A model generated the notes under the pieces. The model did not search any database. It was given only the letters and a program-made list of their open reading frames with translations, and had not been told where the DNA came from. Both the position numbers and the translations under genes were made by a program. DNA of 64,000 bases from Minisyncoccota bacterium (GTDB taxonomy: Bacteria > Patescibacteriota > Minisyncoccia > Minisyncoccales > CG1-02-41-26), in assembly GCA_028718785.1 (NCBI GenBank), contig JAQULB010000002.1, forward strand, positions 84,750-148,749, written 5' to 3'. This document shows, piece after piece, positions 1,526-63,673 of this stretch (position 1 is the first letter of the stretch; every line of letters starts with the position of its first letter).

Positions 1526-1535
1526 TAGAACTGTT

Positions 1536-1648
1536 CTAATTATTCTAATTGCTCTAATTATTCTAAATAAGCACCAAGCTCCAATTGGGAATTGGTTATT
1601 GGGATTTATTTAGGTTAATTAATATAATTAGGTCAATTAGGTTAATTT
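1536..1648 (+). repeat. ~110-bp intergenic repeat, copy 1 (forward)
   Basis: ctaattattctaaataa...aattgggaattggttattgggatttatttaggttaattaatataattaggtcaattaggttaattt. The reverse complement of 9090-9204 aligns along nearly its whole length. Confidence 0.85.
1599..1628 (+). promoter_or_regulatory. promoter-like element inside repeat copy 1
   Basis: TTGGGA (1599-1604), 18-nt spacer, TATAAT (1623-1628), pointing at the giant surface-protein gene. Confidence 0.45.
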
Positions 1649-1768
1649 TAAAGTTTAGGGCAGTCAATAGTAATAATTGATAATTATTGTTGTTGTTTGC
1701 CCTGAAATGTCGTTTGGGGCAATTTATTTAGTAATCCAAGCCAGGCATTAGTTTAAGGAAATTTTTCT

Positions 1769-1786
1769 TCGCTAAAGCTATGGCGG
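1769..1786 (+). promoter_or_regulatory. 18-nt motif shared with the sigma-factor gene start region
   Basis: tcgctaaagctatggcgg occurs at 105-122 and 1769-1786, and both copies include an ATG. At 1780 it opens a 9-codon uORF (MAGNKGRKK) 23 nt before the surface-protein ATG. Confidence 0.5.
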
Positions 1787-1831
1787 GTAATAAAGGTCGA
1801 AAAAAATAAAATAGATTATAAAATTAAAAAA

Positions 1832-4800
1832 ATGAGTAAATTAGCAAAGAAATTCGCAACAATTGCAACAATCATCACGGTTGTGGCAATGGTTGTGGGT
1901 CCTGTTGCTCCAGCTCAAGCGCAAACCACAGCTGAGCTTCAGGCCCAAGTAGCCGCTTTGCAAGCTCAATTAACTGCTCTACTTGCCCAGCTTAACGCAA
2001 CAACTGGTGGCACCACCGGCACAACCGGAACATTGCCATCTGGCTGTTCTTTTGACAGAAATTTAAAGCAAGGCATGTCTGGAGCGGATGTAAAATGCTT
2101 GCAACAGGTTTTAAACTCTGACGCTGACACGCGAGTGGCAGTTTCTGGAGTGGGATCTGCTGGTAATGAAACAACGTATTTTGGCTCCTTAACCACAGCC
2201 GCTGTTAACAAATACCAAGTAAAACAAGGTATCGTGGCAGTGGGAACGGGTTTTGTGGGTCCTCTTACCAGAGCTAAATTGAACGCAGGTACTACAGGAG
2301 GCGCCACAGGCACAACATTGCCTGCAGGATGCACCACAAATTCGGGCTATAGCCCAACAACAGGCCAGCCATGTGGAAGCGGAACAGCTGTGGTTATTCC
2401 AACCACTGGCGTTGTTACTGCTTCTTTAGCCAGCGACAATTCAGCTTCGGCTTCTATTGTTACTGATTCAACAGCAGGCGACGGCGCGCAGTCGTTAATT
2501 CCAATGCTTAAAGTTAATTTAAGCAATGGAACAGCTAGCCCAATAACTGTAACCTCAATGAAGTTCACTCGAAGCGGTATTTCCGATGACAGTGATATTT
2601 CACAGGCCTACCTTTACGATGGGGATACCATGTTAGCTGACTATAGTTCTTTCTCGTTGACTGTTTTAACCTTTAATTCAGCTTCGTTGATAACAATTCC
2701 AGCTAATACTGTTAAAACAATTACCTTGAAAGTTGACTTGGCTGATACAACAGACGCAGGTGGAAAAACTATCAGGTTTGGCATAAACGCCGCTTCTGAT
2801 ATTGTTTCTAATGCTTCTTCAATTGGGGGAGTATTTCCACTTACTGGCAACTATATGACAACTGCTCAAACAAGCAGTTTGGGAAAGTTGACTGTGGCTG
2901 TTCAAGCAACAAATCCAGCCGCTCCTGATCCAGGCGCTGGCGTTGAAGTGATGAAATTCACTTTAGCTGCTGCTGATCAAAATATTCAGGTTAAAAAATT
3001 AGTGTTCACTGATGTTGGAACTGTGGCTTACACTGACTTAACCAACTTCACTTTGTTTGATGCCGCTACCCCGATTGGTTCGGTTGTGGCTTCAGCCAAT
3101 TCTGATAAAACAGTTGTAATGGATTTGTCAGCAAGTCCTATCTTGATTGAAAAAGGCAACACCAAGAATATGACCTTGAAGGCCGATATTGTCGGGGGCA
3201 CAAGCCGAGATTACACATTCAAGTTCCAGAATATGTATGACATTGTGGCCTATGACACTCAATACGGCATTTATGTTAAGCCAAATCAGTCAGATACTTG
3301 GACAATTTTAAGCGGCGCGAAAGGAACCATTAATAATGGTACCGTAACCGCCACTAGAGCAACCGATTCTCCAAGTGGCAATATTTCGGCCTCTTCAACC
3401 AATCAGGTTTTGGCTAAGTTTGTCTTAAAAGCCAGTGGCGAAGATGTCAAAATTTCTGATTTAACTTTAAAGATTTATGGTTCTATTGGCGTTGTCGGTA
3501 TGTATCAAACCAGTGTTTATTATAATGGCGCCCAAGTGGGGCAAACAACCACTACAATGGATACTCAGGCAACCGCAGGAGCTACTGAGGGTGTAATTTT
3601 TAGCTTTGGCAATACCTTAATTCTTCCAGCTGGAAGTGAGAAGGTTTTGGAAATTAGGTCTGATGTTAAAAACGCTTCAGGAGGTTCAATTGCGGCTGGT
3701 TCAACTTTAACCGCCCAGGTTTCTTCCTTTACGGCAACTGGAAAAACATCAGGAGCAAGCGTTACAATCGGCTCGGTGACTGGTTATCAATTAACCGTGT
3801 CAGCAGGCACGCTTGTTGTAACGGAAAATCAAGCTGTTCCTGATTGGTCTTCTTCAACTCCAACAGGAGTGGCAGGAGCCACCAATGCTTTGATTGGTTC
3901 GTTTATTCTTACAGCTGGTTCTGGAGAAGGAGCTAGTGTAACCGCGCTTACAGCGCAGATTATTGGCACAGCTAACACAGAATACCAAAATGTTCGAATC
4001 TACAAAGGAACATTAGCAAGCGGTGTCCAACTTGGCGCTGCTTTGAATAATGGGGGAACTCCAACTGTGGCAACTGACTATACCGTATATCCAAGCCCAT
4101 ATCTTAGTTTGAACGCTGGAGAGCAAGTTGTGTTAAATGTTTATGCTGATATTTTAACCGGCGCTTCCACAGCCACAATTAAGAATGTTAAAATGGGCGT
4201 TGTTTATGGAACAGGCAAAGTAACCAACACCTCAGTTAACAGTTCTGGAACAGTAACCGGCCAAAACTTAGTTGTTTCTTCTGGCGGTTATGTGGGCGTG
4301 TTTGCTGATACAAACACCCCATCGGCTGGATTAGTGGTGATGGGAACAACTGGCGTTGAGTTTGCTAAATTTAAATTATCAGCAAGCTCTTCACCAGAAG
4401 CAATGACAATTTCTGGCCTTGTGGCAACAACCACTCTTAATGCAGGAACTGCTTTGGCCCCAACAAGTTCTGTAAGTAGCATTACATTGACTTCAGCTCT
4501 TAATCCTTCTTGGAGTGTAATACTACCAAGTTTGAGTTCTGCTGGTGTTGCTGACTTCACTGGTTTGATGACAGCAAATCCATTAGTTATCCCAGCGGGC
4601 GAAGAAGATGTTATCACCTTGAAAGCCAATATAGGTGTTTATGGAGCTGCTGATTCTAATTCATATATTGTTTTTGGATTGGCAACTACAACCTATAGAG
4701 GAGAATCAGGCAGTCCAACTACCATAGCTCCAGCTTACAGGGTGGCGGGCACCGCTCAATATATCTACAAGAGCAAGCCAACCGTTACTTTAATTGCTCA

Positions 4801-5365
4801 GCCAACTGCTGGATCTACATTCTCTGATGGCACGCAAACCTTGATTAAATTCAGGGTGGCCGCTGATTCCAAGGGCGCTATTGACCTTAACAGGGTTAAT
4901 ATTAAGGTGGCAATTAATGATATTGCCACTTCAACAAGCAACTTGTATCTTTCGGGAATTAGTTTGTATCAAATTGGCAATAGCACTGTTTTAAATAGCG
5001 CTGTGAGCATCAACGCAACAAGCTCAACAAGCTATATTGATTACTCAGCAAGTTCAACTGTGTCCGCTTCTAAGTTTGGAGGCGCTTTAACTGGCGATCC
5101 TTTATCAAAGACAGGTAACATTTTGTTGTCAAATACAGATGGAACTGCTTTGAAACAAATTGGAGCTGGCAACTACGTTGACTTTGAAGTAAAAGCAACT
5201 GTTACGGGTTCGGCTCAATACGATACAATGACCTTTAGCTTGGACAACCTTGGCTCGTCTTCAACAGACACTAATGCCATTAAGTGGGGTGATACCATTA
5301 CCAATGTTATTCCTGCCACCTATGTGACCGGTTTGCCAACTGACACTTGGTCATATACTAGATAG
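1832..5365 (+). CDS. giant secreted cell-surface protein (candidate S-layer/surface-array protein) with N-terminal coiled-coil + peptidoglycan-binding anchor
   Basis: 1177 aa. Signal peptide MSKLAKKFATIATIITVVAMVVGPVAPAQA; coiled coil AELQAQVAALQAQLTALLAQL; PG_binding_1-like LKQGMSGADVKCLQQVLN...YFGSLTTAAVNKYQVKQG...GPLTRAKLN. Then ~1000 aa rich in T/S/A/V with about six diverged ~150-aa beta-type modules. Confidence 0.8.
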   Translation: MSKLAKKFATIATIITVVAMVVGPVAPAQAQTTAELQAQVAALQAQLTALLAQLNATTGGTTGTTGTLPSGCSFDRNLKQGMSGADVKCLQQVLNSDADTRVAVSGVGSAGNETTYFGSLTTAAVNKYQVKQGIVAVGTGFVGPLTRAKLNAGTTGGATGTTLPAGCTTNSGYSPTTGQPCGSGTAVVIPTTGVVTASLASDNSASASIVTDSTAGDGAQSLIPMLKVNLSNGTASPITVTSMKFTRSGISDDSDISQAYLYDGDTMLADYSSFSLTVLTFNSASLITIPANTVKTITLKVDLADTTDAGGKTIRFGINAASDIVSNASSIGGVFPLTGNYMTTAQTSSLGKLTVAVQATNPAAPDPGAGVEVMKFTLAAADQNIQVKKLVFTDVGTVAYTDLTNFTLFDAATPIGSVVASANSDKTVVMDLSASPILIEKGNTKNMTLKADIVGGTSRDYTFKFQNMYDIVAYDTQYGIYVKPNQSDTWTILSGAKGTINNGTVTATRATDSPSGNISASSTNQVLAKFVLKASGEDVKISDLTLKIYGSIGVVGMYQTSVYYNGAQVGQTTTTMDTQATAGATEGVIFSFGNTLILPAGSEKVLEIRSDVKNASGGSIAAGSTLTAQVSSFTATGKTSGASVTIGSVTGYQLTVSAGTLVVTENQAVPDWSSSTPTGVAGATNALIGSFILTAGSGEGASVTALTAQIIGTANTEYQNVRIYKGTLASGVQLGAALNNGGTPTVATDYTVYPSPYLSLNAGEQVVLNVYADILTGASTATIKNVKMGVVYGTGKVTNTSVNSSGTVTGQNLVVSSGGYVGVFADTNTPSAGLVVMGTTGVEFAKFKLSASSSPEAMTISGLVATTTLNAGTALAPTSSVSSITLTSALNPSWSVILPSLSSAGVADFTGLMTANPLVIPAGEEDVITLKANIGVYGAADSNSYIVFGLATTTYRGESGSPTTIAPAYRVAGTAQYIYKSKPTVTLIAQPTAGSTFSDGTQTLIKFRVAADSKGAIDLNRVNIKVAINDIATSTSNLYLSGISLYQIGNSTVLNSAVSINATSSTSYIDYSASSTVSASKFGGALTGDPLSKTGNILLSNTDGTALKQIGAGNYVDFEVKATVTGSAQYDTMTFSLDNLGSSSTDTNAIKWGDTITNVIPATYVTGLPTDTWSYTR

Positions 5366-5414
5366 AAAAGGAATAGCTAATAGTAAGTAGCAGACAGTTA
5401 GATAGAACGAACAA

Positions 5415-5450
5415 ACCCCTTCCGTCTTTGGCGGGGGGGGTTTTGGTTTT
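5415..5450 (+). terminator. possible intrinsic terminator
   Basis: cccc...gggggggg followed by ttttggtttt, just after the stop of the giant gene. The stem is short. Confidence 0.45.
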
Positions 5451-5509
5451 GGCCTGCCGTTCGGCTGAGCTCACGATGAAGCCCTGAGCGAGCGAAGCGA
5501 GTCGAAGGG

Positions 5510-5547
5510 TTATCCACAGGGGTTGACAAGAAATTATGTTGTATAAT
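5510..5547 (+). promoter_or_regulatory. DnaA-box 9-mer + TTGACA + TATAAT (non-canonical spacing)
   Basis: TTATCCACA (5510-5518), gggg, TTGACA (5523-5528), only a 13-nt spacer, TATAAT (5542-5547). Promoter function is uncertain because of the short spacer. Confidence 0.35.
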
Positions 5548-5601
5548 AAATAAATCTTAAAAATTATAAAAAGGTCGGAAAATTATTGTTTTTGATTTTC
5601 A

Positions 5602-5674
5602 CCCCCACACCAATCTTTTTTAAGTTTAAGTTGTATCAAGTAAGTAAAAGATCTTGATCGGATTGGCGTGGGGG
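5602..5674 (+). promoter_or_regulatory. long stem-loop in the leader of the small repeat-protein gene
   Basis: cccccacaccaatc (5602-5615) pairs with gattggcgtggggg (5661-5674) at 13 of 14 positions. Inner stem atcaag/cttgat. Ends 25 nt before the ATG at 5700. No T-run, so not a terminator. Confidence 0.55.
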
Positions 5675-5699
5675 TTAATAAAAAATTTTAAATTAAATT

Positions 5700-6254
5700 A
5701 TGCAAAATAAAAAACAAACTATTGCTTTAATTGTAAGCGTGGTTTTAGCGGTTGGTTTGATTGTTGTTGGGGTTAACGCTGTTACCACAGTTGGAAACAA
5801 TGTTTCGGTTGGAGGCACTTTGGCTGTTGGTGGCACAGTAGCTTCTGTTGGGAATCTCAGCGTTGGCTCAAAAGCCACCACAACCGCAGCTTCTGGTAAT
5901 TTTGCCACATTGGGAACCATAACAAGCACAGGCGATTTATATGTTGGCGCCAAAGCCACTACCACAGCCGCAAGCGGAAATTTTGCCACTCTTGGGAGTA
6001 TAACTGGCAATGGAGATTTGTATGTAGGTGCTAAAGCCACCACTACCGCTGCTTCTGGAAATATTGCCACCCAAGGAACAATTACCTCAGCAAGAGCCAC
6101 TGATATTGGCTGGGCCGTGGCGTCATCAACAAATGCGGCTTGCAATACCACTTGCACAAGCGCTTGTGTTTTTGGTTGGGATGAAACTGATGCTGTTATC
6201 ACGAATTGCACTGAAGCTACAGCCGATGTTTGTGTGTGCGCTGGATCTAATTAA
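5700..6254 (+). CDS. small secreted repeat protein with Cys-rich C-terminal domain
   Basis: 184 aa. Signal/TM MQNKKQTIALIVSVVLAVGLIVVGVNA; three 27-aa repeats VGAKATTTAASGNFATLG.IT..GDLY; C-terminus has 7 Cys (ACNTTCTSACVFGWDETDAVITNCTEATADVCVCAG). Confidence 0.7.
   Translation: MQNKKQTIALIVSVVLAVGLIVVGVNAVTTVGNNVSVGGTLAVGGTVASVGNLSVGSKATTTAASGNFATLGTITSTGDLYVGAKATTTAASGNFATLGSITGNGDLYVGAKATTTAASGNIATQGTITSARATDIGWAVASSTNAACNTTCTSACVFGWDETDAVITNCTEATADVCVCAGSN
5862..6092 (+). repeat. three tandem 81-nt (27-codon) coding repeats
   Basis: Units at 5862-5942, 5943-6023 and 6024-~6092. The amino-acid sequence is nearly identical between units while many synonymous positions differ (e.g. gcagcttctggt vs gccgcaagcgga). 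Confidence 0.85.
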
Positions 6255-6268
6255 CGATTATTATTTAT

Positions 6269-7204
6269 ATGGCAAAACTTTTAGTTAAGAAAATTGTAGT
6301 TTTGCTCTTGTTTGTTGTTTTGGGTTTTTCAGCAAGCTCTGCATTGGCTGTTTACAATGATGTGCAGTACACTGCTGGAGATAATGTAATTATTTACTTA
6401 AGTGGCGAAGCGCTTAACTTAACAGTAATAAGCGGGAATGTTGCTTCAACAACTGTTAACGCTAGCAATGTTGTGTTTAGAATGGTTCCCAGCTCCACAA
6501 TCTCGCTTACTTCAAGCAACAGAAAAATAATGTCCAATTCTTTGGGCATTAATACAGTTTGCACCAATTCTGAATCGCAGATTTATTTGCAAGCAACGAG
6601 CACCACATTAGCTGATATTACAGTAACTATTGGAGGAGATTGTCCAGCGGTTAATACGGGAGGAGAAACGCAATCACCTGTTGTGACTATTACAACGCCA
6701 GTCACCTCAACAACTTCATCGCAGGAAGCTACAACAACCACAACAACCGAAACAGTCACCCCAACAACCACAGCGCAAGCAACCACAACTATAACAGTTC
6801 CAGCTGTTACCTCTTCGACAAGTTCAGGGCAAGCAAAGCCGATTTCAGAAATGACTGTTTCTGAATTGCAGGCAGAAATTACCAGAATTACCGCTTTGAT
6901 TAGTCAATTAACCGCCAGTATTGGAGGAGGAACAACAGAAACAGCCAGCAAAATTACCAAGGTTTTAAAAATGGGGATGAAAGACACTGAAGTTACATTA
7001 TTACAAACATGGTTGGCAAAAGATGCGACCGTTTATCCTGAGGCAAAAATAACTGGTTATTTTGGACCCTTAACCTTTGGAGCGGTTGTTAAATTTCAAG
7101 AAAAATACGCCAGCGACATCCTAACTCCATTGGGATTGTCAAGCGGGACGGGTTTGGTGGGAGCTTCAACAAGAGCAAAGCTAAATAGCTTATTTGCCCC
7201 GTAG
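6269..7204 (+). CDS. secreted Thr-rich protein with C-terminal coiled-coil + peptidoglycan-binding domain
   Basis: 311 aa. Signal peptide ...GFSASSALA; Thr/Ser linker TTPVTSTTSSQEATTTTTTETVTPTTTAQATTT; coiled coil VSELQAEITRITALISQL; PG_binding_1-like LKMGMKDTEVTLLQTWLAKD...GYFGPLTFGAVVKFQEKY...STRAKLN. Confidence 0.75.
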   Translation: MAKLLVKKIVVLLLFVVLGFSASSALAVYNDVQYTAGDNVIIYLSGEALNLTVISGNVASTTVNASNVVFRMVPSSTISLTSSNRKIMSNSLGINTVCTNSESQIYLQATSTTLADITVTIGGDCPAVNTGGETQSPVVTITTPVTSTTSSQEATTTTTTETVTPTTTAQATTTITVPAVTSSTSSGQAKPISEMTVSELQAEITRITALISQLTASIGGGTTETASKITKVLKMGMKDTEVTLLQTWLAKDATVYPEAKITGYFGPLTFGAVVKFQEKYASDILTPLGLSSGTGLVGASTRAKLNSLFAP

Positions 7205-7250
7205 TGAGCTATGCTCTATTACTGGGGTTTGGAAATTAAGTTAGTTAAAA

Positions 7251-7295
7251 CAAAAACGCTTTTGTAATTTTATTTGCTAAGCGTTTTTGTTTTTG
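7251..7295 (+). terminator. intrinsic terminator
   Basis: Perfect 11-bp stem caaaaacgctt / aagcgtttttg followed by tttttg. Confidence 0.8.
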
Positions 7296-7380
7296 CTAAA
7301 ATAATAATATTAAATCTCGAATTGCAAATTTTCTAAACCATGGATTTAAATAAAGGTAAAAGGAATATTTGATATTTAAT

Positions 7381-9081
7381 ATGCATATAAAACAAAAATT
7401 AATTTTGGCAGTTTTTATTTTTGGTTTAGTTTTTTCTTTTGCGCCGAGATTTTTTGTGTTAGCGAAAAGCGAAGGAGACAGGGAAATCTTTTTTGTTGAA
7501 AAATTATACGACCAAAACCAAAGAAGCCAAGTTGAGTTCCGCTTGGTGAAAATTTCCAACAATGCCTACTTTTATGTTGAAAGCAATTGGTATTTAACCA
7601 TAACTGATCAAGAAAGAGGGTTAATAAATCAAAATTTAGCTATTTTAGCAAGTAGTTTTGATAAGGAAATTTATCCAAAATTAACAAATTTTTGGGGAAG
7701 CGAGTGGAATCCGGGGATTGATAGTGACTCAAAAATAACAGTTGTTTTTGAACAGTTAAACAAAGGAGTGGCTGGTTATTTTAATGATGCTAATGAATAC
7801 CTAAAACAACAGTCGCCTTTTTCTAACCAAAGAGAGATGGTTTTTTTATCAACAGATGTTCTAAAAAGCAGTTTAGCAGAAAGTTATTTAGCTCATGAAT
7901 TTACCCACTTAATTACTTTTAATCAAAAAGACCGGCTTACTGGAACAAGCGAAGATGTTTGGCTTAATGAAGCCCGGGCTGAGTACTCTCCTTTTTATTT
8001 GGGTTATGATGGTCAGCAGAATCAATACAGTAATTTGCAACAAAGAGTAAATGATTTTAGCAACAAGCCATCTGACTCTTTGGTTATTTGGAATGGAGAA
8101 GAAAGCGATTATGGAGTAGTGGATATTTTTATCCAATATTTAGTTGAAAAATATGGCCAAAATATTTTGGTTTCTTCGTTGCATTCAAAAAAAACAGGCG
8201 TTGACTCAATTGACGAAGCATTGTTAAGCAGGGGAGAGGGTAAAAGTTTTTTGCAGATTTTTAACGACTGGGCAACAGCTGTTTTTTTAAATGATTGCTC
8301 TTTGGGGGATGTTTATTATTATAAAAGCAAAGAGTTGATGAATTTACGTTTGCCAGCTAATTTAATTGTTTTGCCTTCAATTGGAAAAACAAATTTATCG
8401 CTTAATTATTCTTTAATGCCATGGTCAAGCAACTGGTATAAGTTTATTGGCTCTGAAGGGGATTTAAAGCTTACTTTCAATTTTGATTCCAAAGCGCTTT
8501 TTGCTTTAAAGTATGTTTTATGCGAAATAAAAGACGGGTGTTCGGTTTTTGGTTTTGATGTTTCTGACTCAAAAAAAGAGTTGGTAATTAATAACTTTAG
8601 CCAGCATTATTTAAGCTTAACCTTAATACCATCAGTTAAACCAAGATTTTCAAATGCAGCTGGACTGGGAGATGTTTATTCTTTTTCAGTTGTGGCTCAA
8701 ACCAGCAACGAGCCATCAAAGTTTCAAGAAGAAGAGTTAATTAAATCGCTTTTAGCGCAGATCGAGCAATTAAAAATTCAAATAGCCAAAGTTCAGGCCC
8801 AGCTTTTAGCAATGGGAAAAACAAACCTTGTGTGTTCTGGCTTTCAAACAAACCTTTATTTTGGCTTGAGTTCAAGCCAAGTTAGTTGTTTGCAAGAATT
8901 TTTAAAAAATCAGGGCCCCGATATTTATCCACAAGGCATTGTTTCTGGATATTTTGGAAATTTAACTAAAACGGCTGTTATTAATTTTCAAGAAAAATAC
9001 GGGATTGCAAGCACTGGGTATGTGGGAGTGTTGACAAGAGCGAAAATTAATCAAATGCTATTGCCAACGCAGCAAAAATAG
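7381..9081 (+). CDS. secreted HExxH metallopeptidase-like protein with C-terminal coiled-coil + peptidoglycan-binding domain
   Basis: The ORF track starts at a TTG (7369); the ATG at 7381 gives MHIKQKLILAVFIFGLVFSFAPRFFVLA (signal). HExxH in YLAHEFTHLITF; coiled coil LLAQIEQLKIQIAKVQAQLLA; PG_binding_1-like LSSSQVSCLQEFLKNQG...GYFGNLTKTAVINFQEKY...LTRAKIN. Confidence 0.7.
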   Translation: MHIKQKLILAVFIFGLVFSFAPRFFVLAKSEGDREIFFVEKLYDQNQRSQVEFRLVKISNNAYFYVESNWYLTITDQERGLINQNLAILASSFDKEIYPKLTNFWGSEWNPGIDSDSKITVVFEQLNKGVAGYFNDANEYLKQQSPFSNQREMVFLSTDVLKSSLAESYLAHEFTHLITFNQKDRLTGTSEDVWLNEARAEYSPFYLGYDGQQNQYSNLQQRVNDFSNKPSDSLVIWNGEESDYGVVDIFIQYLVEKYGQNILVSSLHSKKTGVDSIDEALLSRGEGKSFLQIFNDWATAVFLNDCSLGDVYYYKSKELMNLRLPANLIVLPSIGKTNLSLNYSLMPWSSNWYKFIGSEGDLKLTFNFDSKALFALKYVLCEIKDGCSVFGFDVSDSKKELVINNFSQHYLSLTLIPSVKPRFSNAAGLGDVYSFSVVAQTSNEPSKFQEEELIKSLLAQIEQLKIQIAKVQAQLLAMGKTNLVCSGFQTNLYFGLSSSQVSCLQEFLKNQGPDIYPQGIVSGYFGNLTKTAVINFQEKYGIASTGYVGVLTRAKINQMLLPTQQK

Positions 9082-9089
9082 GGCAGAAT

Positions 9090-9204
9090 ATTATTAAATT
9101 AACCTAATTAACCTAATTATACTAATTAACCTAAATAAATCCCAATGACTAATTCTCAATTGGGATTTGGGGTTTGGTTATTATTTAGAATAATTAGAAT
9201 AATT
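9090..9204 (-). repeat. ~110-bp intergenic repeat, copy 2 (inverted)
   Basis: Its reverse complement reads ...ctaattattctaaataataaccaaaccccaaatcccaattgagaattagtcattgggatttatttaggttaattagtataattaggttaattaggttaattt. The same TTGGGA-N18-TATAAT is present on the minus strand (9145-9116). Confidence 0.85.
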
Positions 9205-9206
9205 TT

Positions 9207-10127
9207 ATGAAAGTTTTAGTAACTGGCGGAGCTGGGTTTATCGGCTCTCATTTAGTGGATAAATTAGTGGAGTTGGGCCACTCTGTTTTGGTTTTGGATA
9301 ATTTAAGCAATGGCAAAAAAGAAAATATCAATCCCAAAGCCGAGTTTCACCAAGTTGATATTTGCGACTTTGAAATAATGTGTTTGTATTTTAAAGATAT
9401 TGATTATGTTTTTCATTTAGCGGCTTTACCAAGAATTCCTTTTTCCATTCAAAATCCAATAGGCACTTCTAATGTTAATATAATGGGAACTATCAATGTT
9501 TTTGAAGCGGCAAAACAAAACAAAGTTAAAAGGGTAATTAGCACCTCATCTTCTTCGGTTTATGGCAATCAAGATAAACTGCCCCTAAAAGAGGATATGG
9601 CGCTTAACCCAATAAGTCCCTATGGATTGCAGAAATGGGTTGGAGAGCAATTTGCTAAACTTTATACTGAAATATACAATTTGCCAGTTGTTTCTATAAG
9701 ACCCTTTAATGTTTACGGGCCTCGTCTTGATGTTGAATCAGATTATTCTTTGGCCTTGGGAAGATTTTTAAAATTAAAATCTCTCAACAAGCCCTTAACT
9801 ATAAATGGGGATGGAGAACAAACAAGAGGGTATTGTTATGTTGAAGATTTAGTTGAGGCGTTTATTTTGGCAATGCAAAGTCAAAAAGTAAAAGGCGGAG
9901 AAGTTATAAACGCGGGAAGCAACAAGGCCTACTCCATTAATTTTTTAGCTGATTTAATCGGGGGAGAAAAAGTTTATGGTCCAGAAAGGCAGGGAGATAT
10001 AAGACACACTCAAGCGGATGTTTCTTTGGCAAAAGAGCTGTTGGACTGGGAACCGAAGATGGATTTTACAGAAGGAGTAAAGAAAACAATTGAATGGTTC
10101 AACGAACAAACGAAAAACGAAAAATGA
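9207..10127 (+). CDS. NAD-dependent epimerase/dehydratase (extended SDR, UDP-sugar epimerase/decarboxylase-like)
   Basis: 306 aa. VLVTGGAGFIGSHLV Rossmann motif; YGLQK-type YxxxK (SPYGLQKWVGE). Confidence 0.85.
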   Translation: MKVLVTGGAGFIGSHLVDKLVELGHSVLVLDNLSNGKKENINPKAEFHQVDICDFEIMCLYFKDIDYVFHLAALPRIPFSIQNPIGTSNVNIMGTINVFEAAKQNKVKRVISTSSSSVYGNQDKLPLKEDMALNPISPYGLQKWVGEQFAKLYTEIYNLPVVSIRPFNVYGPRLDVESDYSLALGRFLKLKSLNKPLTINGDGEQTRGYCYVEDLVEAFILAMQSQKVKGGEVINAGSNKAYSINFLADLIGGEKVYGPERQGDIRHTQADVSLAKELLDWEPKMDFTEGVKKTIEWFNEQTKNEK

Positions 10128-10191
10128 AAAACCACAAGTAAAAATCAAAAATGAGCGAACTTTTTCACTTTTAATTTTTAATTTTATTTAT

Positions 10192-11040
10192 ATGTTAAAC
10201 AAAAAAATTAACGAAATTACAATTGGGATAATGGGCGTTGGCATGGTGGGAGGAGCTTTAAGGGATTATTTTGAAAAAAAAGGCAAGGCGGTTGGGAAAG
10301 ATTTATTTTTATATGACCCGTTTAAGGGTTTTGATTCTGTTGATGAAATCAACAAAGCGGATGCTATTTTTATTTGTGTACCCACTCCTTATTTGAAAGA
10401 TGGCAAGGGATTTGATTTATCTTATGTTGAAGACGCTTTTTCTAAAATAAAAGGAGAAAAAATAATAGTTATAAAATCAACTGCCCTGCCCGGAACAACG
10501 CAAAAGTTTCAAGATAAGTATCCCCAGCATAAAGTTTTGTTTAACCCAGAATTTTTAACAGAGTTAACCGCTGAGCAAGATATGAGTTATCCGGACCGTC
10601 AAATAATTGGCGCAACAGAACAAAGTTTAAATGTGGCTAAAGATATAATGATGCTTTTGCCGTTGGCGCCTTATGAAAAAATAATGCCCTCAACAGAGGC
10701 GGAAATGGTAAAATACTTTGGCAATAATTGGTTTGCTGTTAAGGTGGCTTTTGCCAATCAAATGTATGATGTTTGCTCTAAGTTGGGAATAAACTACGAT
10801 ATTGTTATGGAGGCCGCCGCCGCTGACAAACGCATTGGTCCGTCGCATTTAGTGGCTTTACATAAAGGATATCGGGGTTATGGGGGCAAGTGCCTTCCAA
10901 AAGACATTAAGGCGTTTATTCAGTTTGGGGATTCTTTGGGAGTTGATTTAAAAGTTCACAAAGCCACCGAGGCGGTTAATAATGATTTAATGAAAGCTCA
11001 AAATATTGAAGACCCAGAAAAGTATTCAAAAAGAGAATAA
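10192..11040 (+). CDS. UDP-glucose/GDP-mannose dehydrogenase family protein, short form
   Basis: The ATG at 10192 (MLNKKINEITIGIMGVGMVGGAL) is preferred over the upstream in-frame ATG at 10090 that overlaps the previous gene. Has an NAD-binding GxGxxG and the catalytic-Cys motif GGKCLPKD. Only ~45 aa follow that Cys, so the usual C-terminal UDP-binding domain appears absent. Confidence 0.65.
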   Translation: MLNKKINEITIGIMGVGMVGGALRDYFEKKGKAVGKDLFLYDPFKGFDSVDEINKADAIFICVPTPYLKDGKGFDLSYVEDAFSKIKGEKIIVIKSTALPGTTQKFQDKYPQHKVLFNPEFLTELTAEQDMSYPDRQIIGATEQSLNVAKDIMMLLPLAPYEKIMPSTEAEMVKYFGNNWFAVKVAFANQMYDVCSKLGINYDIVMEAAAADKRIGPSHLVALHKGYRGYGGKCLPKDIKAFIQFGDSLGVDLKVHKATEAVNNDLMKAQNIEDPEKYSKRE

Positions 11041-18193: not shown

Positions 18194-18830
18194 CCCGCTA
18201 TTTGATTTTTTGTTAAAAATTACTCTGGCTGTTCACAGTTATTTATACAAAGCTATTTCTTTTTTGGCTATAAGGAAAGAAGGTGGAAAACATCCAAAAC
18301 ATCGAATTTTAAATTACCATCAGTTTTTCTTGGAAAATATATTATCCCAAAGCAGGGTTTTGGATGTTGGCTGTTCAAGCGGAGAACTAACTTTTGATTT
18401 AGCAAAAAAAGCGAGAAAAGTAGTTGGTATTGATCTAAATGAAAAATATCTCCAAAAAGCCAAACAAAAAAATAATGCCCACAACATAGAATATATTTTG
18501 GGAGATGGGGCAAGCTATGATTTTAAAGAAAAATTTAATTTTGCGGTTTTATCCAATGTTTTAGAGCATATTGAAAAAAGAGAAGATTTTTTAAAGAAAA
18601 TAAGCTCAATTGCTGATAAAATATTAATAAGAGCGCCGCTTTTAACAAGAGATTGGCTTTCTGTTTATAAAAAGGAAACGGGCGTTTGGTACAAATTAGA
18701 CAAAACACATTTTATTGAATACACGAAAGAACAATTTATTTGGGAAATTGAAAAGGCCGGGCTTAAAATAGAAAAAATGGAAATAAATTTTGGAGAAATT
18801 TATGCAATTATCAGTAAAAAAAATAATTAG
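18177..18830 (+). CDS. class I SAM-dependent methyltransferase
   Basis: Motif I VLDVGCSSGELTFDLA; VVGIDLN; LSNVLEHI. The ATG at 18177 is preferred to the TTG at 18171. Confidence 0.8.
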   Translation: MKNKSNPLFDFLLKITLAVHSYLYKAISFLAIRKEGGKHPKHRILNYHQFFLENILSQSRVLDVGCSSGELTFDLAKKARKVVGIDLNEKYLQKAKQKNNAHNIEYILGDGASYDFKEKFNFAVLSNVLEHIEKREDFLKKISSIADKILIRAPLLTRDWLSVYKKETGVWYKLDKTHFIEYTKEQFIWEIEKAGLKIEKMEINFGEIYAIISKKNN

Positions 18831-19881
18831 CAAGGGACTTGCTGTAAAAGACAATATTTTTTCTAATAAAAAATACAAGCTTTCTTATATTGTTGAAAAT
18901 AAAGATTGGATTGTGAGCCGGATTGGAGAAAAATTGGTTGAATGTTTGAGTAATTTAGGATTTAAACAAGCCAAAACAACTATAACTTCTTTGGGCTTGC
19001 GAAATCAAATAATTCATTTTGGCTCAGTGCACACTTTTTTAAAAGAAAAAGGATTTAAAAAATTTCATATTTCAAATCAAGCTGTTTTAACTTGGTTTCA
19101 TTTTGTTGCTGAAGATAAAAGAATTAAGCATCTTTTGGAAGCTCAAAAATATTTAAAAATAATCCACACATCTTGTAGTATTACAAAGCGCAATTTGATT
19201 GATTTTGGCGTAGATAAAAATAAAGTTTTGGTCATTCCTTTGGGGGTTGATTTAAATTTATTTAAAATAGTTAATGAGCAAAAAAAACAAGAAATAAAAG
19301 AGGCCCTATCTATTCCCAAAAATGTTTTTGTGATTGGTTCTTTCCAAAAAGATGGAGTTGGCTGGGGGGATGGCGGGGAGCCAAAATTAATAAAAGGGCC
19401 GGATATTTTTGTTAAAGCGGTTGAAAAGATATCAAAAAATTTTCCAGTTTTTGTTTTGTTGACAGGACCATCAAGGGGGTATATAAAAAAAGAGCTTGAA
19501 AAAAGAAATATTCCCTATAAAAGCGCGGGTTTTTTAGATGACTATAAAGAAGTTGCTTATTATTACAATGCTTTAGATTTATATATTGTGGCCTCTAGAA
19601 TCGAGGGGGGGCCTGAGGCGATCGTGGAGTCGATGGCTTGTGGAGTTCCGTTAATTTCAACAAATATGGGAATGGCCCCTGATATTATTATTGATGGAGA
19701 AAATGGATTTTTAGCTGAAGTGGAAAATGCCAGTGAAATTGCCCAAAAAGCTATGCTGGTTTTTACCCAAACAGAGCTCAAAGAAAAAATAATTAAAAGT
19801 AGCCAAGAAACAATTCAAGAATATTCTTGGGAAAAAATAGCTAAACGCTATTTTGATGAAATATATGCAAAACTCTTATAA
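18802..19881 (+). CDS. glycosyltransferase, GT-B fold (GT1/GT4-like)
   Basis: C-terminal signature ASRIEGGPEAIVESMACGVPLISTNMGMAPDIIIDGENGFL. The ATG at 18802 is preferred to the TTG at 18790. Confidence 0.8.
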   Translation: MQLSVKKIISKGLAVKDNIFSNKKYKLSYIVENKDWIVSRIGEKLVECLSNLGFKQAKTTITSLGLRNQIIHFGSVHTFLKEKGFKKFHISNQAVLTWFHFVAEDKRIKHLLEAQKYLKIIHTSCSITKRNLIDFGVDKNKVLVIPLGVDLNLFKIVNEQKKQEIKEALSIPKNVFVIGSFQKDGVGWGDGGEPKLIKGPDIFVKAVEKISKNFPVFVLLTGPSRGYIKKELEKRNIPYKSAGFLDDYKEVAYYYNALDLYIVASRIEGGPEAIVESMACGVPLISTNMGMAPDIIIDGENGFLAEVENASEIAQKAMLVFTQTELKEKIIKSSQETIQEYSWEKIAKRYFDEIYAKLL

Positions 19882-20815
19882 TAAATTTGATAATGTTTTT
19901 TTAAATATAAAGGAAGAATTTGAAAAGCAAAATCAACTTCTTTCTAAAAAACCAAAAAATGGGAAAGAAAGTAATTTTTTGTTTAATATTTTATCAGTTA
20001 TGTTTGGTCTATTTTTGGCTTTGCTTTATAAATGTGGCATTTTACAAAAGCTTTTTTATTCCAATATGCGCTTGAAATGGTTCTTTGATTTTAAAAAATT
20101 TTGGGTGGATTATTTGGGAAATCGCAATATTGATGTTATTGATTTTCATTTTTTAAGAGATTCTTACAGGGCAAAATTTCAAGATGTTTCTTTAGAGCAT
20201 ACAGACGAAAAAAATCCAGAAAAATTTTTAGCTTCTTGGCAAGGCCAAGGAAATATATTTTATCTTTTTCAATCAGTTTGGAATTATAGCAAAAAAGCCT
20301 ATTTGGACTGTTGGCTTTTTGTTAAGTTTATTAAAAAGAACAGTCATGTTTTAGAATACGGGTGTTCAGTGGCTCCCATAACTCAAGGGCTTATAAAATA
20401 TTTTGGCTATAAAAATTTAAAGTTTACCATTGCCGATATTCCCCAAATTGCTTTTTTGTATGCAAGGTGGAAACTAATGACCAATAAAAGGGTTGGGTCA
20501 ATTGTGCTGAATCCAAGCCAAAAGAATAATTTGCCCCAAAATGTAAAGTATAACACTATTGTTTGTTTAACGGTTTTTGAACATTTACCAAACCCCATAG
20601 AAGTTGTTGAGGGCTTTTTGAGCCATTTAGAGAAAGGCGGGGTTTTAATTTTTGATTACATAAAAGGAGAGGCTGGGGGACTCAACAGCATTGCTGGAGA
20701 AAAAGAAAGAATAGAGGTTTTAAAAATAATTGAAAGAAATTTTAAAGTTTTAAAAGGCAAAATTGATTTTGAAAATTCAATGGGCCTGACCATAGCGCAA
20801 ATAAAGAATGACTAA
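19856..20815 (+). CDS. putative SAM-dependent methyltransferase
   Basis: Weak motif I VLEYGCSVAPITQGL; VFEHLPNP; LEKGGVLIFDY. Start is ambiguous (ATGs at 19856 and 19865). Confidence 0.5.
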   Translation: MKYMQNSYNKFDNVFLNIKEEFEKQNQLLSKKPKNGKESNFLFNILSVMFGLFLALLYKCGILQKLFYSNMRLKWFFDFKKFWVDYLGNRNIDVIDFHFLRDSYRAKFQDVSLEHTDEKNPEKFLASWQGQGNIFYLFQSVWNYSKKAYLDCWLFVKFIKKNSHVLEYGCSVAPITQGLIKYFGYKNLKFTIADIPQIAFLYARWKLMTNKRVGSIVLNPSQKNNLPQNVKYNTIVCLTVFEHLPNPIEVVEGFLSHLEKGGVLIFDYIKGEAGGLNSIAGEKERIEVLKIIERNFKVLKGKIDFENSMGLTIAQIKND

Positions 20816-30521: not shown

Positions 30522-31490
30522 ATGCTAAACAATAAAAAAATTTTATTAACTGGCGGAGTGGGTTCTTTTGGCTCAAAGTTTGTCGAAATAGTTTTAAAAA
30601 ATTACAACCCTGCTGTTTTAAGGGTTTTTGATAATAACGAATACAAGGAAGTGGAAATGGAAAGGAAATTTAAAGACGAAAGATTAAGGTTTTTTATTGG
30701 GGATATAAGAGATTTTGACCGCTTAAAAATGGCAATGAGGGGTGTTGATATTGTGGTTCACGCGGCCGCTTTAAAGCACATTACGGTTTGTGAATATAAC
30801 CCAATAGAGGCCATAAAAACAAATATTGATGGGGCTATTAATATTGTAAAAGCCGCTTTAAGTGAAGGGGTGGAAAGGGTTATTGCCTTGAGCACTGATA
30901 AAGCTGCCTACCCGGTAAATCTTTACGGGGCAAGTAAAATGGTAATGGAAAAAATATTTATTCAGGGGAATACTTATTCAGCTAAACAAAACATTCGTTT
31001 TTCTTGCACTCGGTATGGAAATGTAGTTGGTTCGTCTGGTTCGGTTGTTCCTTTATTTAAAGAGCAGGCCAAGACCGGAAAAATCACCATAACTGATGAA
31101 AATATGACAAGGTTTTGGATAACATTGGAGCAGGGAGTAGAGTTTGTTATTAAATCTATTGAAAGAATGGAGGGAGGGGAGATATTTGTTCCCAAGATTC
31201 CTTCAATGAAAATTATGGATTTAGCCAATCTTATAGCTCCAAAAGCAAAAAAAGAAATTATTGGAAAGCGACCAGGTGAAAAGTTGCATGAAGTTTTAAT
31301 TACCAAAGAAGAATCCACTCACGCAAAAGAACACGATAATTATTATACTATTGAGCCAGATTTTCCATTCTGGCCTTATAATGAAGATAGGGGCGGAAGG
31401 GAATTGTCAGAGGGGTTTTTTTATTCAAGCGATACGAATACCCAGTGGTTAAAAGAAGAAGACCTGGGGGAGATAATTACTAATTCCTAA
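30522..31490 (+). CDS. pseB: UDP-N-acetylglucosamine 4,6-dehydratase (inverting), PseB/FlaA1 type
   Basis: Collinear with my recollection of Campylobacter PseB: KKILLTGGVGSFGS, HAAALKHI..CEYNP.EAIKTNI.GA.N, LSTDKAAYPVNLYGASK, TRYGNVVGSSGSVVP, MTRFWITLEQGV, GGEIFVPKIPSMKI.DLA, GEKLHE. Confidence 0.9.
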   Translation: MLNNKKILLTGGVGSFGSKFVEIVLKNYNPAVLRVFDNNEYKEVEMERKFKDERLRFFIGDIRDFDRLKMAMRGVDIVVHAAALKHITVCEYNPIEAIKTNIDGAINIVKAALSEGVERVIALSTDKAAYPVNLYGASKMVMEKIFIQGNTYSAKQNIRFSCTRYGNVVGSSGSVVPLFKEQAKTGKITITDENMTRFWITLEQGVEFVIKSIERMEGGEIFVPKIPSMKIMDLANLIAPKAKKEIIGKRPGEKLHEVLITKEESTHAKEHDNYYTIEPDFPFWPYNEDRGGRELSEGFFYSSDTNTQWLKEEDLGEIITNS

Positions 31491-31537
31491 TTTCTAATAA
31501 CTAAAATGGGAACAGGGATTTTTATTCATTGAGGTCT

Positions 31538-31575
31538 GGTTATTGGGATTTATTTAGGTTAATTAGGTTAATTTA
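31538..31575 (+). repeat. third (partial) copy of the intergenic repeat family seen at 1536-1648 and 9090-9204
   Basis: ggttattgggatttatttaggttaattaggttaattt shares the 27-nt core ttattgggatttatttaggttaatta with the other two copies. Confidence 0.85.
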
Positions 31576-40303: not shown

Positions 40304-40418
40304 TTTTTAATTTCCAATTTTTAATTTTTAAATAATTTTTAATGTCTTAATGTTTAAAAATTTAGATTTGAGATTTATTTAAAAATTACAAAATTAAAAA
40401 TTCAAAAATTGTTTTACT

Positions 40419-42880: not shown

Positions 42881-43138
42881 AAGTCGTTAATAAGCGAAGC
42901 GAATTTACGAATTCTTAGATCCTGTTAAACGCTCCTCTCAGAGAGCGTTTAATCGGGATATTCCTTAAGTCGTTAATAAGCGAAGCGAATTTACGAATTC
43001 TTAGATCCTGTTAAACGCTCCTCTCAAAGAGCGTTTAATCGGGATATTCCTTAAGTCGTTAATAAGCGAAGCGAATTTACGAGTTCTTACACCCCGTTAA
43101 ACGCAACCTCAAGGAGCTGTTTAGCTGGGGTATTATTT
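42881..43138. repeat. three tandem 86-bp repeats, each with an internal hairpin
   Basis: Units at 42881-42966 and 42967-43052 differ at 1 of 86 positions. The third (43053-~43138) is diverged in its distal half. Each contains ttaaacgctc-N8-gagcgtttaa (e.g. 42925-42952) extended by atcc/ggat. Confidence 0.9.
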
Positions 43139-47396: not shown

Positions 47397-47406
47397 AGAA
47401 ATATGT

Positions 47407-47474
47407 TGGAGGTACGGGGAGTTGAACCCCGAAACTCTAGGTGACAATCCAGAGTTTGCTACCGAGCTACCCCC
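47407..47474 (-). tRNA. atypical 68-nt tRNA-like gene (anticodon region contains GUC/UGU; identity unresolved)
   Basis: Minus strand reads GGGGGTA GCTCGGTAGC AAACTCTGGATTGTCACCTAGAGTTT CGGGG-TTCAACT-CCCCG TACCTCC A. It has a 7-bp acceptor stem and a canonical T arm. The D arm is truncated to 3 bp with a 4-nt loop, there is no U8, and the anticodon arm has an 8-nt loop or a bulged U. A possible TGaTATAAT -10 lies at 47494-47486 (minus). Confidence 0.55.
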
Positions 47475-47501
47475 AACACAATCGAATTATATCATAAACA
47501 T

Positions 47502-57563: not shown

Positions 57564-57676
57564 AATATCTAATAACATAAAACTAATAATAAATAACATT
57601 AAAAATTTATCCCCTTGAAAGGGGGTATTTTTTTTAGTATTGTAGAAGAATAGCTTTTAAATAAAACTTTATTTCA

Positions 57677-58984: not shown

Positions 58985-59118
58985 ATCTTAATATCTAAAT
59001 CCTAAATCCTAAACAAATCCAAATGACCAAAACCCAAAATCCAAAACAAAAAAGACAAACTGAGCCATTTTGGATTTAAAACATTTTGGCTTTGAGTTTA
59101 TTTAGAGTTTAAACATCT

Positions 59119-62071: not shown

Positions 62072-62269
62072 AAAGATATAGAATGGTAGCGCTTCCGCAA
62101 GGAGGGGTCGGGAGGAATGCAATTCCTCCCGTGTAGGAAAACAGGCCACCTTTGGTGGCCGTTAGAAACCAAGGGTTTCTAAAGAGCGAGAGAAGCGAGC
62201 GATGGAAGCGCTTTATTGGAGTTTATAGCCAACGGAACCCTGCCTGGCGTTGAAGCGCTGAAAATATAA
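62006..62269 (+). repeat. perfect 66-bp direct repeat (62006-62071 and 62204-62269) flanking a 132-bp GC-rich palindromic insert
   Basis: Both copies read ggaagcgctttattggagtttatagccaacggaaccctgcctggcgttgaagcgctgaaaatataa (the last 21 pgk codons plus stop, with 2 nt of the preceding codon). The insert carries three perfect hairpins (62109-62131, 62144-62160, 62162-62182). Confidence 0.95.
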
Positions 62270-62405
62270 CAGCCTTAAACCCAAAATCCAAATAACAAAT
62301 GTCAAATCAAACCAAAAATCCAAATAACCAAAAAGGTTTTTTCTTGGGTTTTGAATTTTGAATTTGAATTGAAATTTGGATCTTGAAATTTGGATTTTTT
62401 TATTT

Positions 62406-63563: not shown

Positions 63564-63673
63564 AATATTAAATATAAAATTGCAAATGTCTGTGTTTAAA
63601 ACAAAATTTAAAATATATTTAAAATTTAAGATGTAAATTTTAGATTTGCAATTTAAGATTTGAGATTAATTTT

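Follow-up and report, generated by a model that had tools for sequence, protein, structure and literature searches.

Inverted repeats flanking surface-protein genes in a Minisyncoccota genome are probably independent copies of a dispersed hairpin element of the intervening-sequence type

We analysed a stretch of 64,000 nucleotides, hereafter the window, from a Minisyncoccota bacterium (contig JAQULB010000002.1, positions 84,750 to 148,749), a member of the Patescibacteria or candidate phyla radiation (CPR). Two inverted repeats lie there on either side of four genes for secreted proteins, and an earlier note on this DNA had read them as the borders of a mobile or invertible cassette, as promoter-bearing repeats, or as substrates for surface-protein variation. 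In our view the two repeats are probably independent copies of a dispersed Patescibacteria hairpin element of the intervening sequence (IVS) type, devoid of an open reading frame (ORF) in this region, which we propose to be co-transcribed as an RNase III-type stem. The element has a recurrent anatomy and can fold into a long hairpin, its family extends over many Patescibacteria lineages, some of its members bracket an ORF of the IVP family (23S rRNA intervening-sequence protein), and copies are gained and lost at single gene junctions.

Results

The two repeats are copies of one quasi-palindromic element

A repeat search of the window returned inverted arms at 1564-1648 and 9096-9180 (85 nt, 86% complementary, separated by 7447 nt). 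A further inverted pair, 1547-1594 and 9157-9204 (48 nt, 79%), lengthened the match on alignment, with one gap, to about 1536-1648 against 9090-9204, and a 17-mer, CTAATTATTCTAAATAA, was found exactly at 1554-1570 (+) and 9181-9197 (-). The inverted repeats of about 110 nt that the earlier note had reported between 1536-1648 and 9090-9204 were thus confirmed. A 23-mer, TTGGGATTTATTTAGGTTAATTA, was exact at 1599 (+), 9123-9145 (-) and 31543 (+), that is at three sites of the window when shuffles gave an expectation of 0.01 and none of 100 shuffles reached three. The last of these sites belongs to a third copy, which the same note had described as partial (31538-31575); a copy does lie there, but it is a diverged full-length one, at about 31475-31573.

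One copy is a quasi-palindrome of about 100-115 nt. Its left arm is made of two to five nine-nucleotide units, nnnCTAATT, followed by an inner left box, CTAAATAA(T)..CCAA. A variable apex of 25-50 nt separates this box from the inner right box, TTGGGATTTATTTAG, which is followed by AATTAGnnn units, the reverse complement of the left ones. Since each copy is an imperfect palindrome, copy 2 also aligned to copy 1 as a direct repeat (1582-1629 with 9157-9204, 77%), and the antisense orientation of copy 2, to which attention had been drawn, has no special meaning in a quasi-palindromic element. The copies recognised in the window, their parts and two probable relatives are given below, with the evidence in brackets.

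1536..1647, plus strand: copy 1, a full ORF-less element (sequence, repeats, exact 23-mer, fold, hidden Markov model (HMM) of the arms)
Copy 1, left arm, plus strand: CTAATT units at 1536, 1545 and 1554; inner box CTAAATAA at 1563-1570; apex at 1571-1598
Copy 1, right side, plus strand: inner box TTGGGATTTATTTAG at 1599-1613; AATTAG-type units at 1617, 1626 and 1635; terminal AATT at 1644-1647
9097..9204, minus strand: copy 2, a full ORF-less element in the orientation opposite to copy 1 (repeats, 23-mer, fold, HMM, orthologue at locus L043)
Copy 2, parts on the minus strand: left arm at 9204-9181 (AATT, CTAATT, CTAAATAA); apex at 9180-9146; inner right box at 9145-9131; right units down to 9097
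31475..31573, plus strand: copy 3, a diverged full-length element between PseB-like and PseC-like genes (repeats, four left units, HMM)
Copy 3, parts on the plus strand: left arm at 31475-31508 (CTAATT units at 31480, 31487 and 31494); inner right box at 31543-31557; right arm to 31573
40304..40406, plus strand: probable decayed relative, tentatively assigned, an AT-rich palindrome with the box TTGAGATTTATTTAAAAATTA (inverted arms 40304-40342 and 40368-40406)
58985..59118, plus strand: probable diverged relative, with a C-type left arm (CTAAATCCTAAATCCTAAACAAATCC...) and a G-type right arm (TTTGAGTTTATTTAGAGTTT) (sequence, hairpin z = -4.2, HMM)

The right end of copy 2 is 15 nt from the stop codon of the peptidase gene (9081), and its left end, which turns one arm toward the epimerase gene, is 2 nt from the ATG of that gene (9207). 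The PseB-like ORF ends within the left arm of copy 3, from which it takes its final codons and its TAA stop (31488-31490), the stop being 16 nt inside the element. Most likely, the PseC-like aminotransferase gene starts at ATG 31583, 9 nt past the right end of copy 3, and not at TTG 31529 inside it. As for the relatives, the palindrome at 40304-40406 ends 12 nt before ATG 40419 (hairpin z = -3.7) and was not recovered when the window was searched with the right-arm HMM, so that its membership is tentative, and the palindrome at 58985-59118 ends at ATG 59119. Two further AT-rich palindromes ending at start codons, 62270-62375 and 63564-63674, are more doubtful relatives.

On folding, copy 1 formed a single long hairpin (-33.9 kcal/mol, z = -4.8) and copy 2 folded on both strands (-26.7 and -27.6 kcal/mol, z = -3.3 and -3.7). 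Eight element strands were folded, two of them being the opposite strands of copies 1 and 2; hairpin z values lay between -3.3 and -8.8 for seven, and only the L053 strand remained at -1.6. The duplex energy between arms was -27.3 kcal/mol, compared to -12.6 for shuffled arms. The element family thus has what is typical of rRNA IVSs, terminal inverted repeats that fold into a long enclosing stem.

The element is dispersed across Patescibacteria

A 21-mer core of the element was found exactly at 55 loci, in 59 copies, in a collection of species-representative genomes, and all these loci had the same arm architecture. They come from metagenome-assembled genomes (MAGs) labelled Saccharibacteria, Berkelbacteria and Doudnabacteria, from Shapiro-, Roizman- and Daviesbacteria within the Microgenomates, and from Nealson-, Lipton-, Yanofsky- and Jacksonbacteria and Paceibacterota within the Parcubacteria. 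Neighbours include dnaK, a glycosyltransferase gene and others, with no tie to surface-protein genes. The repeat is thus present at dozens of unrelated intergenic sites in either orientation, the very situation that the earlier note had named as speaking against its proposals.

Six MAGs deposited among the binchicken TPA assemblies as 'uncultured Gammaproteobacteria bacterium' account for eight loci (L001, L036, L044, L046, L047, L049, L054 and L055). These have a GC content of 38-45%, several of their proteins are 40-70% identical to those of Patescibacteria loci, and the L047 copy is much like the one in a Shapirobacteria MAG (L016). The labels are probably wrong, GC content and protein similarities being compatible with mislabelled Patescibacteria.

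The 21-mer was absent from viral contigs, so that there was no sign of a phage vector. With Rfam, the whole window gave no match at the gathering threshold, and a permissive search with copy 1 and one coding element returned only generic sub-threshold hairpins (plant miRNA precursors, NsiR9, sroE); no described RNA family therefore fits the element. In the literature, we found no paper with the core sequence, and nothing relevant on miniature inverted-repeat transposable elements (MITEs) in CPR or on mobile intergenic elements with an S23 protein. The element is MITE-like, being short, non-coding and multi-copy (three copies in the window), with terminal inverted repeats whose arrays end in AATT...AATT. 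Small perfect GC-rich hairpins were nested in the AT-rich arms or apex at L029, L055, L064/L065, L107, L121 and L125; these hairpins, CCTGCCTGCCGGTAGGCGGGCG and GTTGCTCCTTAAGCGAAGCTTAAGGAGCAAC for instance, look like a second kind of small palindromic insert.

Coding members of the family bracket an IVP gene

At four loci (L006, L007, L034 and L022), the apex is replaced by an ORF of 119-121 aa placed between the arms. It matches the PF05635 family of 23S rRNA-intervening sequence proteins (E = 2e-12 to 9e-12) and also the four-helix-bundle family TIGR02436 (E = 1e-17), and its nearest solved structure is 2rld, annotated as an uncharacterized protein. This IVP ORF begins with an ATG contained in the left inner box (CTAAATA-ATG) and runs up to a stop codon directly adjoining TTGGGATTT. 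At L012, an intermediate with an internal deletion, only the first 14 codons and about the last 10 are left.

Selection of loci on the 21-mer gives a bias: a first nhmmer model, made from copies selected in this way, brought few extra copies and was replaced. For this reason metagenome contigs were scanned with the protein only, which yielded 384 relatives, of which the best 80 were kept, 70 of them unique. Among these protein-found loci, a left arm was present in 65 of the 66 that could be evaluated and a right arm in 66 of 68, and the IVP ORFs were all intact (113-131 aa). The core consensus that they give, free of the selection bias, is TTGGGATTTRWTTAG followed by AATTAG units, and the exact 21-mer is its commonest variant.

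An HMM built only from the right arms of the protein-found loci was then run on the 64-kb window. Both arms of copy 1 were among the top matches (1535-1578 (-), E = 3e-4; 1598-1640 (+), E = 7e-3), as were both arms of copy 2 (9106-9147 (-), E = 7e-4; 9174-9204 (+), E = 0.09), the right arm of copy 3 (31542-31571, E = 0.07) and one arm of the palindrome at 58985-59118 (58989-59025 (-), E = 0.09). The left box with the ATG of the ORF (CTAAnnnAATG) persists in 14 of 47 ORF-less copies, compared to 0.9% in shuffles. A tblastn search detected no IVP ORF in the window, where all three copies are ORF-less. The arms found around IVP ORFs, the matches of the arm HMM and the residual ATG box together suggest that the window copies are the ORF-less form, MITE-like 'solo hairpins' of an IVS-type element which would sit in mRNA spacers and not in rRNA. 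A loop ORF of the S23p / 23S_rRNA_IVP family, as in rRNA IVSs, is accordingly a property of the family and is missing from the window copies. The transposase-bearing autonomous relative expected of a MITE was not seen; the coding relative encodes only the PF05635 four-helix-bundle protein.

Copies occupy the spacers between co-directional genes

ORF-less copies lie between the stop codon of one gene and the ATG of the next, both in the same direction, with the right arm toward the downstream ATG in about 20 cases and reversed in about 13. The upstream stop is at or within one end of the element and the downstream ATG near the other end. In the exact-21-mer copies of the genome collection, 0-14 nt separate the right end from the downstream ATG; in the protein-found loci the distance between element end and ATG is mostly within 10 nt, and up to 39 nt. 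A sequence resembling a Shine-Dalgarno (SD) site preceded the downstream ATG in 1 of 23 cases. Copies bearing the ORF were also co-directional with their neighbours (37 of 40 upstream, 35 of 39 downstream).

No rRNA was detected by Rfam in the window, whose copies lie between protein-coding ORFs. The 70 ORF-bearing relatives are flanked by long ORFs, and those of low coding content gave no Rfam rRNA match. Conserved rRNA motifs were absent from all loci except L054, whose 23S fragment lies 6 kb from the element. That fragment (L054, 7227-7468) covers only positions 2656-2912 of the 23S model despite 530 nt of upstream sequence, which suggests that this 23S gene may carry an insertion near position 2655, as is common in CPR. 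The IVP ORF is flanked by ordinary housekeeping genes, and neither a reverse transcriptase nor a template/variable repeat was found beside the loci examined.

Copies 1 and 2 differ in age and source

Copies 1 and 2 flank four ORFs (1832-5365, 5700-6254, 6269-7204 and 7369-9081), three of which have a PG_binding_1 domain, the last one (7369-9081) giving a weak peptidase-MA match; that the repeats enclose four secreted-protein genes (1832-9081), as noticed earlier, is therefore correct. A 'Candidatus Pacebacteria' MAG encodes a protein with 100% identity to the giant protein of this block. Relatives were found by means of this protein at L056 (71% aa identity), L057 (64%), L058 (94%), L059/L061 (70%) and L062 (68%). 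Together with L043 they make six relatives in which the gene order (ECF-type sigma, a gene of about 238 aa, giant gene, two genes, peptidase) is conserved and the orientation alike. Among the 50 window ORFs scanned against Pfam there was no recombinase, transposase or reverse transcriptase, and the earlier remark that neither of the first two is visible holds.

At the left junction, copy 1 is absent from the orthologous site in L056, L057, L058, L059 and L062, even in L058, whose giant protein is 94% identical. The spacer before the giant gene contains a native leader, described by the following features.

1690..1831, plus strand: leader native to the giant gene, outside the element (conserved in L056, L058, L059 and L062)
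1697-1722 and 1793-1805, plus strand: hairpin TTGCCCTGAAATGTCGTTTGGGGCAA, a terminator-like match, and motif AAGGTCGAAAAAA, respectively, within this leader (L057 keeps the AAGGTCGA motif only)

Four of the five relatives without copy 1 keep this 3' part of the spacer with both the hairpin TTGCCCTGAAATGTCGTTTGGGGCAA and the motif AAGGTCGAAAAAA, and L057 keeps the motif. The absence of copy 1 from five relatives, while the leader stays, marks copy 1 as a recent gain upstream of the native leader.

The right junction has another history. Copy 2 has an orthologue in L043 (JAUSHZ01) at the same junction and in the same orientation, between coding flanks that are 77% identical; the right arm and core of this orthologue agree with the window in every letter over about 50 nt. 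Elsewhere the right junction is occupied by a different AT-rich palindrome (L056), or has other neighbours and no spacer (L057 and L059). Copy 1 itself, with its apex counted in, has about 95% identity with the L043 copy and with a third one, L005, from the same MAG as L043, the three being at different junctions; for the coding flanks identity is 70-86% (77% for the two junctions concerned). With copy 2 of its own window, copy 1 has an identity of only 86%. L005 carries a fresh copy where the window has a different spacer (57564-57676).

The differing presence at the left and right junctions means that copies 1 and 2 differ in age and source, and are not a pair. The near-identity at three junctions suggests that the ORF-less form itself is being copied or homogenised. 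The surface-protein genes are, by these comparisons, a vertically inherited syntenic block flanked by two spacers of different age.

A proposed transcribed stem or a possible array of recognition sites

Our proposal is that the element would be co-transcribed with the flanking, nearly always co-directional genes, and that an imperfect AU-rich stem of about 40-45 bp would form in the transcript, like those that RNase III cuts in rRNA IVSs. In that role the element would be a processing or insulating spacer, selfish or nearly neutral, and the downstream SD-less gene would be left, incidentally, with a short A/U-rich leader. The strictly conserved hexamers may be recognition sites for the agent that copies or homogenises the element, for which the IVP protein, a trans-acting enzyme and gene conversion are candidates.

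Several results speak against this proposal. Co-transcription and RNase III cleavage are what we infer by analogy. Copy 3 folds weakly (z = -1.1), as do two putative decayed copies. Native arm pairs were no better than arms exchanged between elements (-27.3 versus -27.4 kcal/mol, p = 0.76), so that arm pairing is a property of the family and is not kept up in each element; this swap test revealed no element-specific compensatory evolution of the arms, and neither strand was favoured. Near-invariant hexamers combined with shuffled 3-nt spacers point to a sequence-specific recognition beside, or instead of, the stem. No examined locus lay inside an rRNA gene, by motifs or Rfam, and the likeness to rRNA IVSs is one of architecture and ORF family, not of shared arm sequence. 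Finally, where filled and unfilled junctions were compared (window with L058 and L056, L005 with window 57564-57676), the whole spacer was replaced and neither a target-site duplication nor a clean empty site was visible, for which reason gene conversion or repeated re-occupation cannot be told from transposition.

Some of these results would be expected if the function were exerted at the DNA level, the arms being inverted arrays of binding sites (CTAATT/AATTAG every 9 bp) for an IVP pentamer, a transposase, or a nucleoid or regulatory protein, and the hairpin a by-product. The near-invariant hexamers fit, as does the small shuffled repertoire of 3-nt spacers, which are not mirrored between arms; so do the lack of element-specific covariation and strand preference, and a unit number that goes from 2 to 7 per arm. 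Subterminal repeat arrays are also the typical architecture of transposase binding. However, no candidate binding protein is encoded near the ORF-less copies, we know of no demonstrated sequence-specific DNA binding by a PF05635 protein, and the one solved structure that was matched, 2rld, carries the annotation 'uncharacterized protein'. The 9-bp spacing is off the helical repeat, and the inner boxes and apex keep pairing too (CCCAAT...ATTGGG), which arrays of sites alone would not need. We regard a purely DNA-level role as rather unlikely.

A bolder possibility goes beyond the proposed transcribed stem. Arms and PF05635 gene might together form a still-active, undescribed class of Patescibacteria mobile element colonising the stop-to-start spacers of operons, in which recognition of the CTAATT nonamer arrays, in DNA or RNA form, by the small Avd-like protein with its four-helix bundle would favour the copying or homing of coding and ORF-less forms alike. 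Copying might go through a borrowed reverse transcriptase, from the host or a diversity-generating retroelement (DGR), or through hairpin-directed recombination. We hold this to be improbable; if true, it would give a function to the 'IVS protein' and a route by which IVSs enter rRNA helices.

Promoter-like hexamers are not a family property

The element could also be a portable expression module, with its gene-proximal arm serving as a sigma-70-type promoter or SD-independent leader and its distal arm as a terminator or insulator; in that case copy 2 would drive either the epimerase gene or a transcript antisense to the peptidase gene. The sequence TTGGGA-N18-TATAAT is present in copies 1 and 2, as the earlier note had pointed out (1599-1628 (+) and 9145-9116 (-), 10 of 12 matches each). 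A long-ORF ATG lies 39-63 nt past the core and 0-14 nt past the arm in 23 of the 59 copies, without SD but for the single case mentioned above; half copies with the right arm only sit before ATGs; and the L005 element stands in place of a window spacer resembling a terminator plus an AT-rich stretch.

The family does not conform to this expectation. TATAAT or TAnnnT was found 16-19 nt from TTGGGA in only 8 of the 59 copies, the same number as at spacings of 17-18, and AGAAAT was the commonest hexamer at this place, so that a -35/-10 pair of sigma-70 spacing is not conserved among copies in spite of the hexamers of copies 1 and 2. Core and ATG are separated by a variable number of 9-nt units, which gives the 39-63 nt range and no fixed promoter geometry. 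Promoter-like matches in the region were not enriched (37, versus 31 +/- 6 in shuffles). Judged from the sequences read, with no computed test, AU-rich stems devoid of a U-tract are poor intrinsic terminators. Copy 1, moreover, is separated from the giant gene by a 184-nt leader which relatives lacking the repeat conserve. Promoter activity of individual AT-rich arms is possible, but it is not a conserved property of the family, and we give the expression module little credence. Of the earlier suggestion of a promoter-bearing intergenic repeat family, the dispersed family stands (55 loci) and the promoter does not (8 of 59 copies).

The giant gene's leader has signals of its own. A motif, AAGGTCGARAAAA, is found about 35-45 nt before the ATG in 5 of 5 relatives compared, and the hairpin in 4 of 5; a one-mismatch copy of the motif lies at 5571-5583, before the gene at 5700. 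A 28-nt stretch, TCGCTAAAGCTATGGCGG.. (86%), is common to 105-132, around the start of the ECF-type sigma gene, and to 1769-1796 in the giant-gene leader. Motif, hairpin and 28-nt stretch may be the real regulatory signal of the surface-protein genes. An ECF-sigma promoter, considered in view of the ECF-type sigma gene at 116-655, was rejected for the element, which has no AAC...CGT-type motif; the conserved leader lies downstream of it.

The least tenable explanation, to which we attach next to no probability, is that the inverted repeats define a surface-protein cassette which moves like a composite transposon, is inverted by a recombinase or serves as a substrate of homologous recombination: 85-nt arms at 86% do flank exactly the four genes, and could in principle allow RecA-mediated inversion, but gene order and orientation are identical in six relatives with no inversion or other structural variant seen, the left copy is missing from five of them (one at 94% aa) and the right one is older, so that the ends were not acquired together, copy 1 has closer counterparts in another genome (95%) than in copy 2 (86%), the 50 ORFs scanned include no recombinase, transposase or reverse transcriptase, and the element recurs at dozens of unrelated junctions; the proposals of a unit that moves or inverts and of surface-protein variation by recombination are both unsupported.

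Other features of the window

Some further sequences were recorded in the course of the analysis. The spacer separating two divergent genes, one for a Bac_transf sugar transferase (41563-42873, minus strand) and one Wzy_C O-antigen-ligase-like (43214-45295), holds three 86-nt units in tandem (42881-43138). An internal hairpin (AAACGCTC...GAGCGTTT) is present in every unit, and identity to the first unit is 99% for the second and 76% for the third.

The final 66 nt of the phosphoglycerate kinase gene (pgk), stop included (62006-62071), are duplicated exactly at 62204-62269, 198 nt downstream. The 132 nt between the duplicates are GC-rich and hairpin-rich, and the AT-rich palindrome 62270-62375 follows. 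The arrangement resembles that left by an insertion which entered pgk at its 3' end and brought a replacement for the gene end.

A tRNA scan of the window (ARAGORN, default) gave none. A 73-nt tRNA-like sequence is present at 47404-47477 (minus strand), with a perfect T arm and a GTC-type anticodon loop; the ARAGORN and Rfam defaults do not call it, and at an 80% threshold ARAGORN gives 'tRNA-?(Thr|Asp)'. An inverted repeat of part of the anticodon arm lies at about 47330.

In L056, positions 18206-20353 correspond to a UDP-glucose/GDP-mannose dehydrogenase gene with an intein and LAGLIDADG homing-endonuclease domains. Its homologue in the window (10090-11040) is a shorter ORF of 316 aa, without intein.

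Discussion

The origin, spread and function of rRNA IVSs and of their S23p/IVP proteins have been puzzling since about 1990. The IVS architecture, in hundreds of copies in the mRNA spacers of Patescibacteria, amounts to a large comparative data set, which offers a conserved inner box and nonamer arms, intact ORFs, ORF-less derivatives, and gain and loss between close relatives. For the annotation of CPR genomes, it matters that such elements take up an appreciable part of the intergenic DNA, overlap with stop codons and give rise to spurious upstream starts, as when TTG 31529 is called in place of ATG 31583. A tempting reading of the surface-protein genes, as a mobile or phase-variable cassette, is also removed.

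Comparison with known systems

The Correia elements of Neisseria, the enterobacterial ERIC/IRU and the pneumococcal RUP are intergenic imperfect palindromes of about 100-150 bp, multi-copy and found in either orientation. Such repeats are co-transcribed with their neighbours and able to form RNA hairpins, and Correia elements have been reported as RNase III substrates with promoter-like ends. Those families are confined to a genus or a family, whereas the present element spans deeply diverged Patescibacteria lineages. Unlike MITEs of the Correia type, it presented no TA-type target duplication, and its coding relative is a four-helix-bundle gene and not a transposase.

In DGRs, the accessory protein Avd, a small basic four-helix-bundle protein of the same superfamily as the loop ORF, is presumably related to the PF05635 fold, and target recognition involves a hairpin or cruciform. 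Unlike DGRs, the element loci have no adjoining reverse transcriptase or template/variable repeat. A mention of PF05635 is found in PMC10053308.

TIGR arrays consist of 36-nt units, with two alternating repeats of 8-12 nt and 9-nt spacers, repeated 5-15 times beside a Nop-domain Tas gene (PMC12045711). They share with the element a short period, conserved and variable parts, and occurrence in parasitic bacteria including Patescibacteria (PMC12045711). A TIGR array was rejected as an identity for the element, whose unit is of 9 nt (sometimes 7; six conserved and three variable), with 2-5 units per inverted arm, and no Nop-domain ORF was found in the window. Integron attC sites, suggested by a palindrome lying between genes of one direction, were likewise rejected on inspection by eye: the flanking genes are housekeeping ones, and no R-box motif (GTTRRRY/RYYYAAC) stands at either end.

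We found no description in the literature of the IVS architecture in mRNA spacers; its known setting is rRNA. In the IVSs of Coxiella, Leptospira and Salmonella, inverted repeats form a stem, the loop of which holds an S23p ORF in some cases, and RNase III excises these IVSs; short ORF-less forms exist, and the Coxiella IVS has a variable number of tandem heptamers before its ORF (PMC4990558). In CPR, 16S and 23S genes contain 23S_rRNA_IVP ORFs and many short ORF-less insertions (PMC11270868). Like rRNA IVSs, the element has terminal inverted repeats forming a long stem and an optional loop ORF of PF05635/TIGR02436, without SD; its ORF-less forms are of about 100 nt; variable short tandem repeats precede the ORF, nonamers in place of the heptamers of Coxiella; and its distribution is sporadic, suggesting horizontal transfer. 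Unlike rRNA IVSs, which occupy helix 25 or 45 of 23S rRNA and, in CPR, also 16S rRNA, it is found in spacers between protein-coding genes and in several copies per region, three of them in the 64-kb window, and its arm sequence, including the exact 21-mer, is common to many Patescibacteria lineages.

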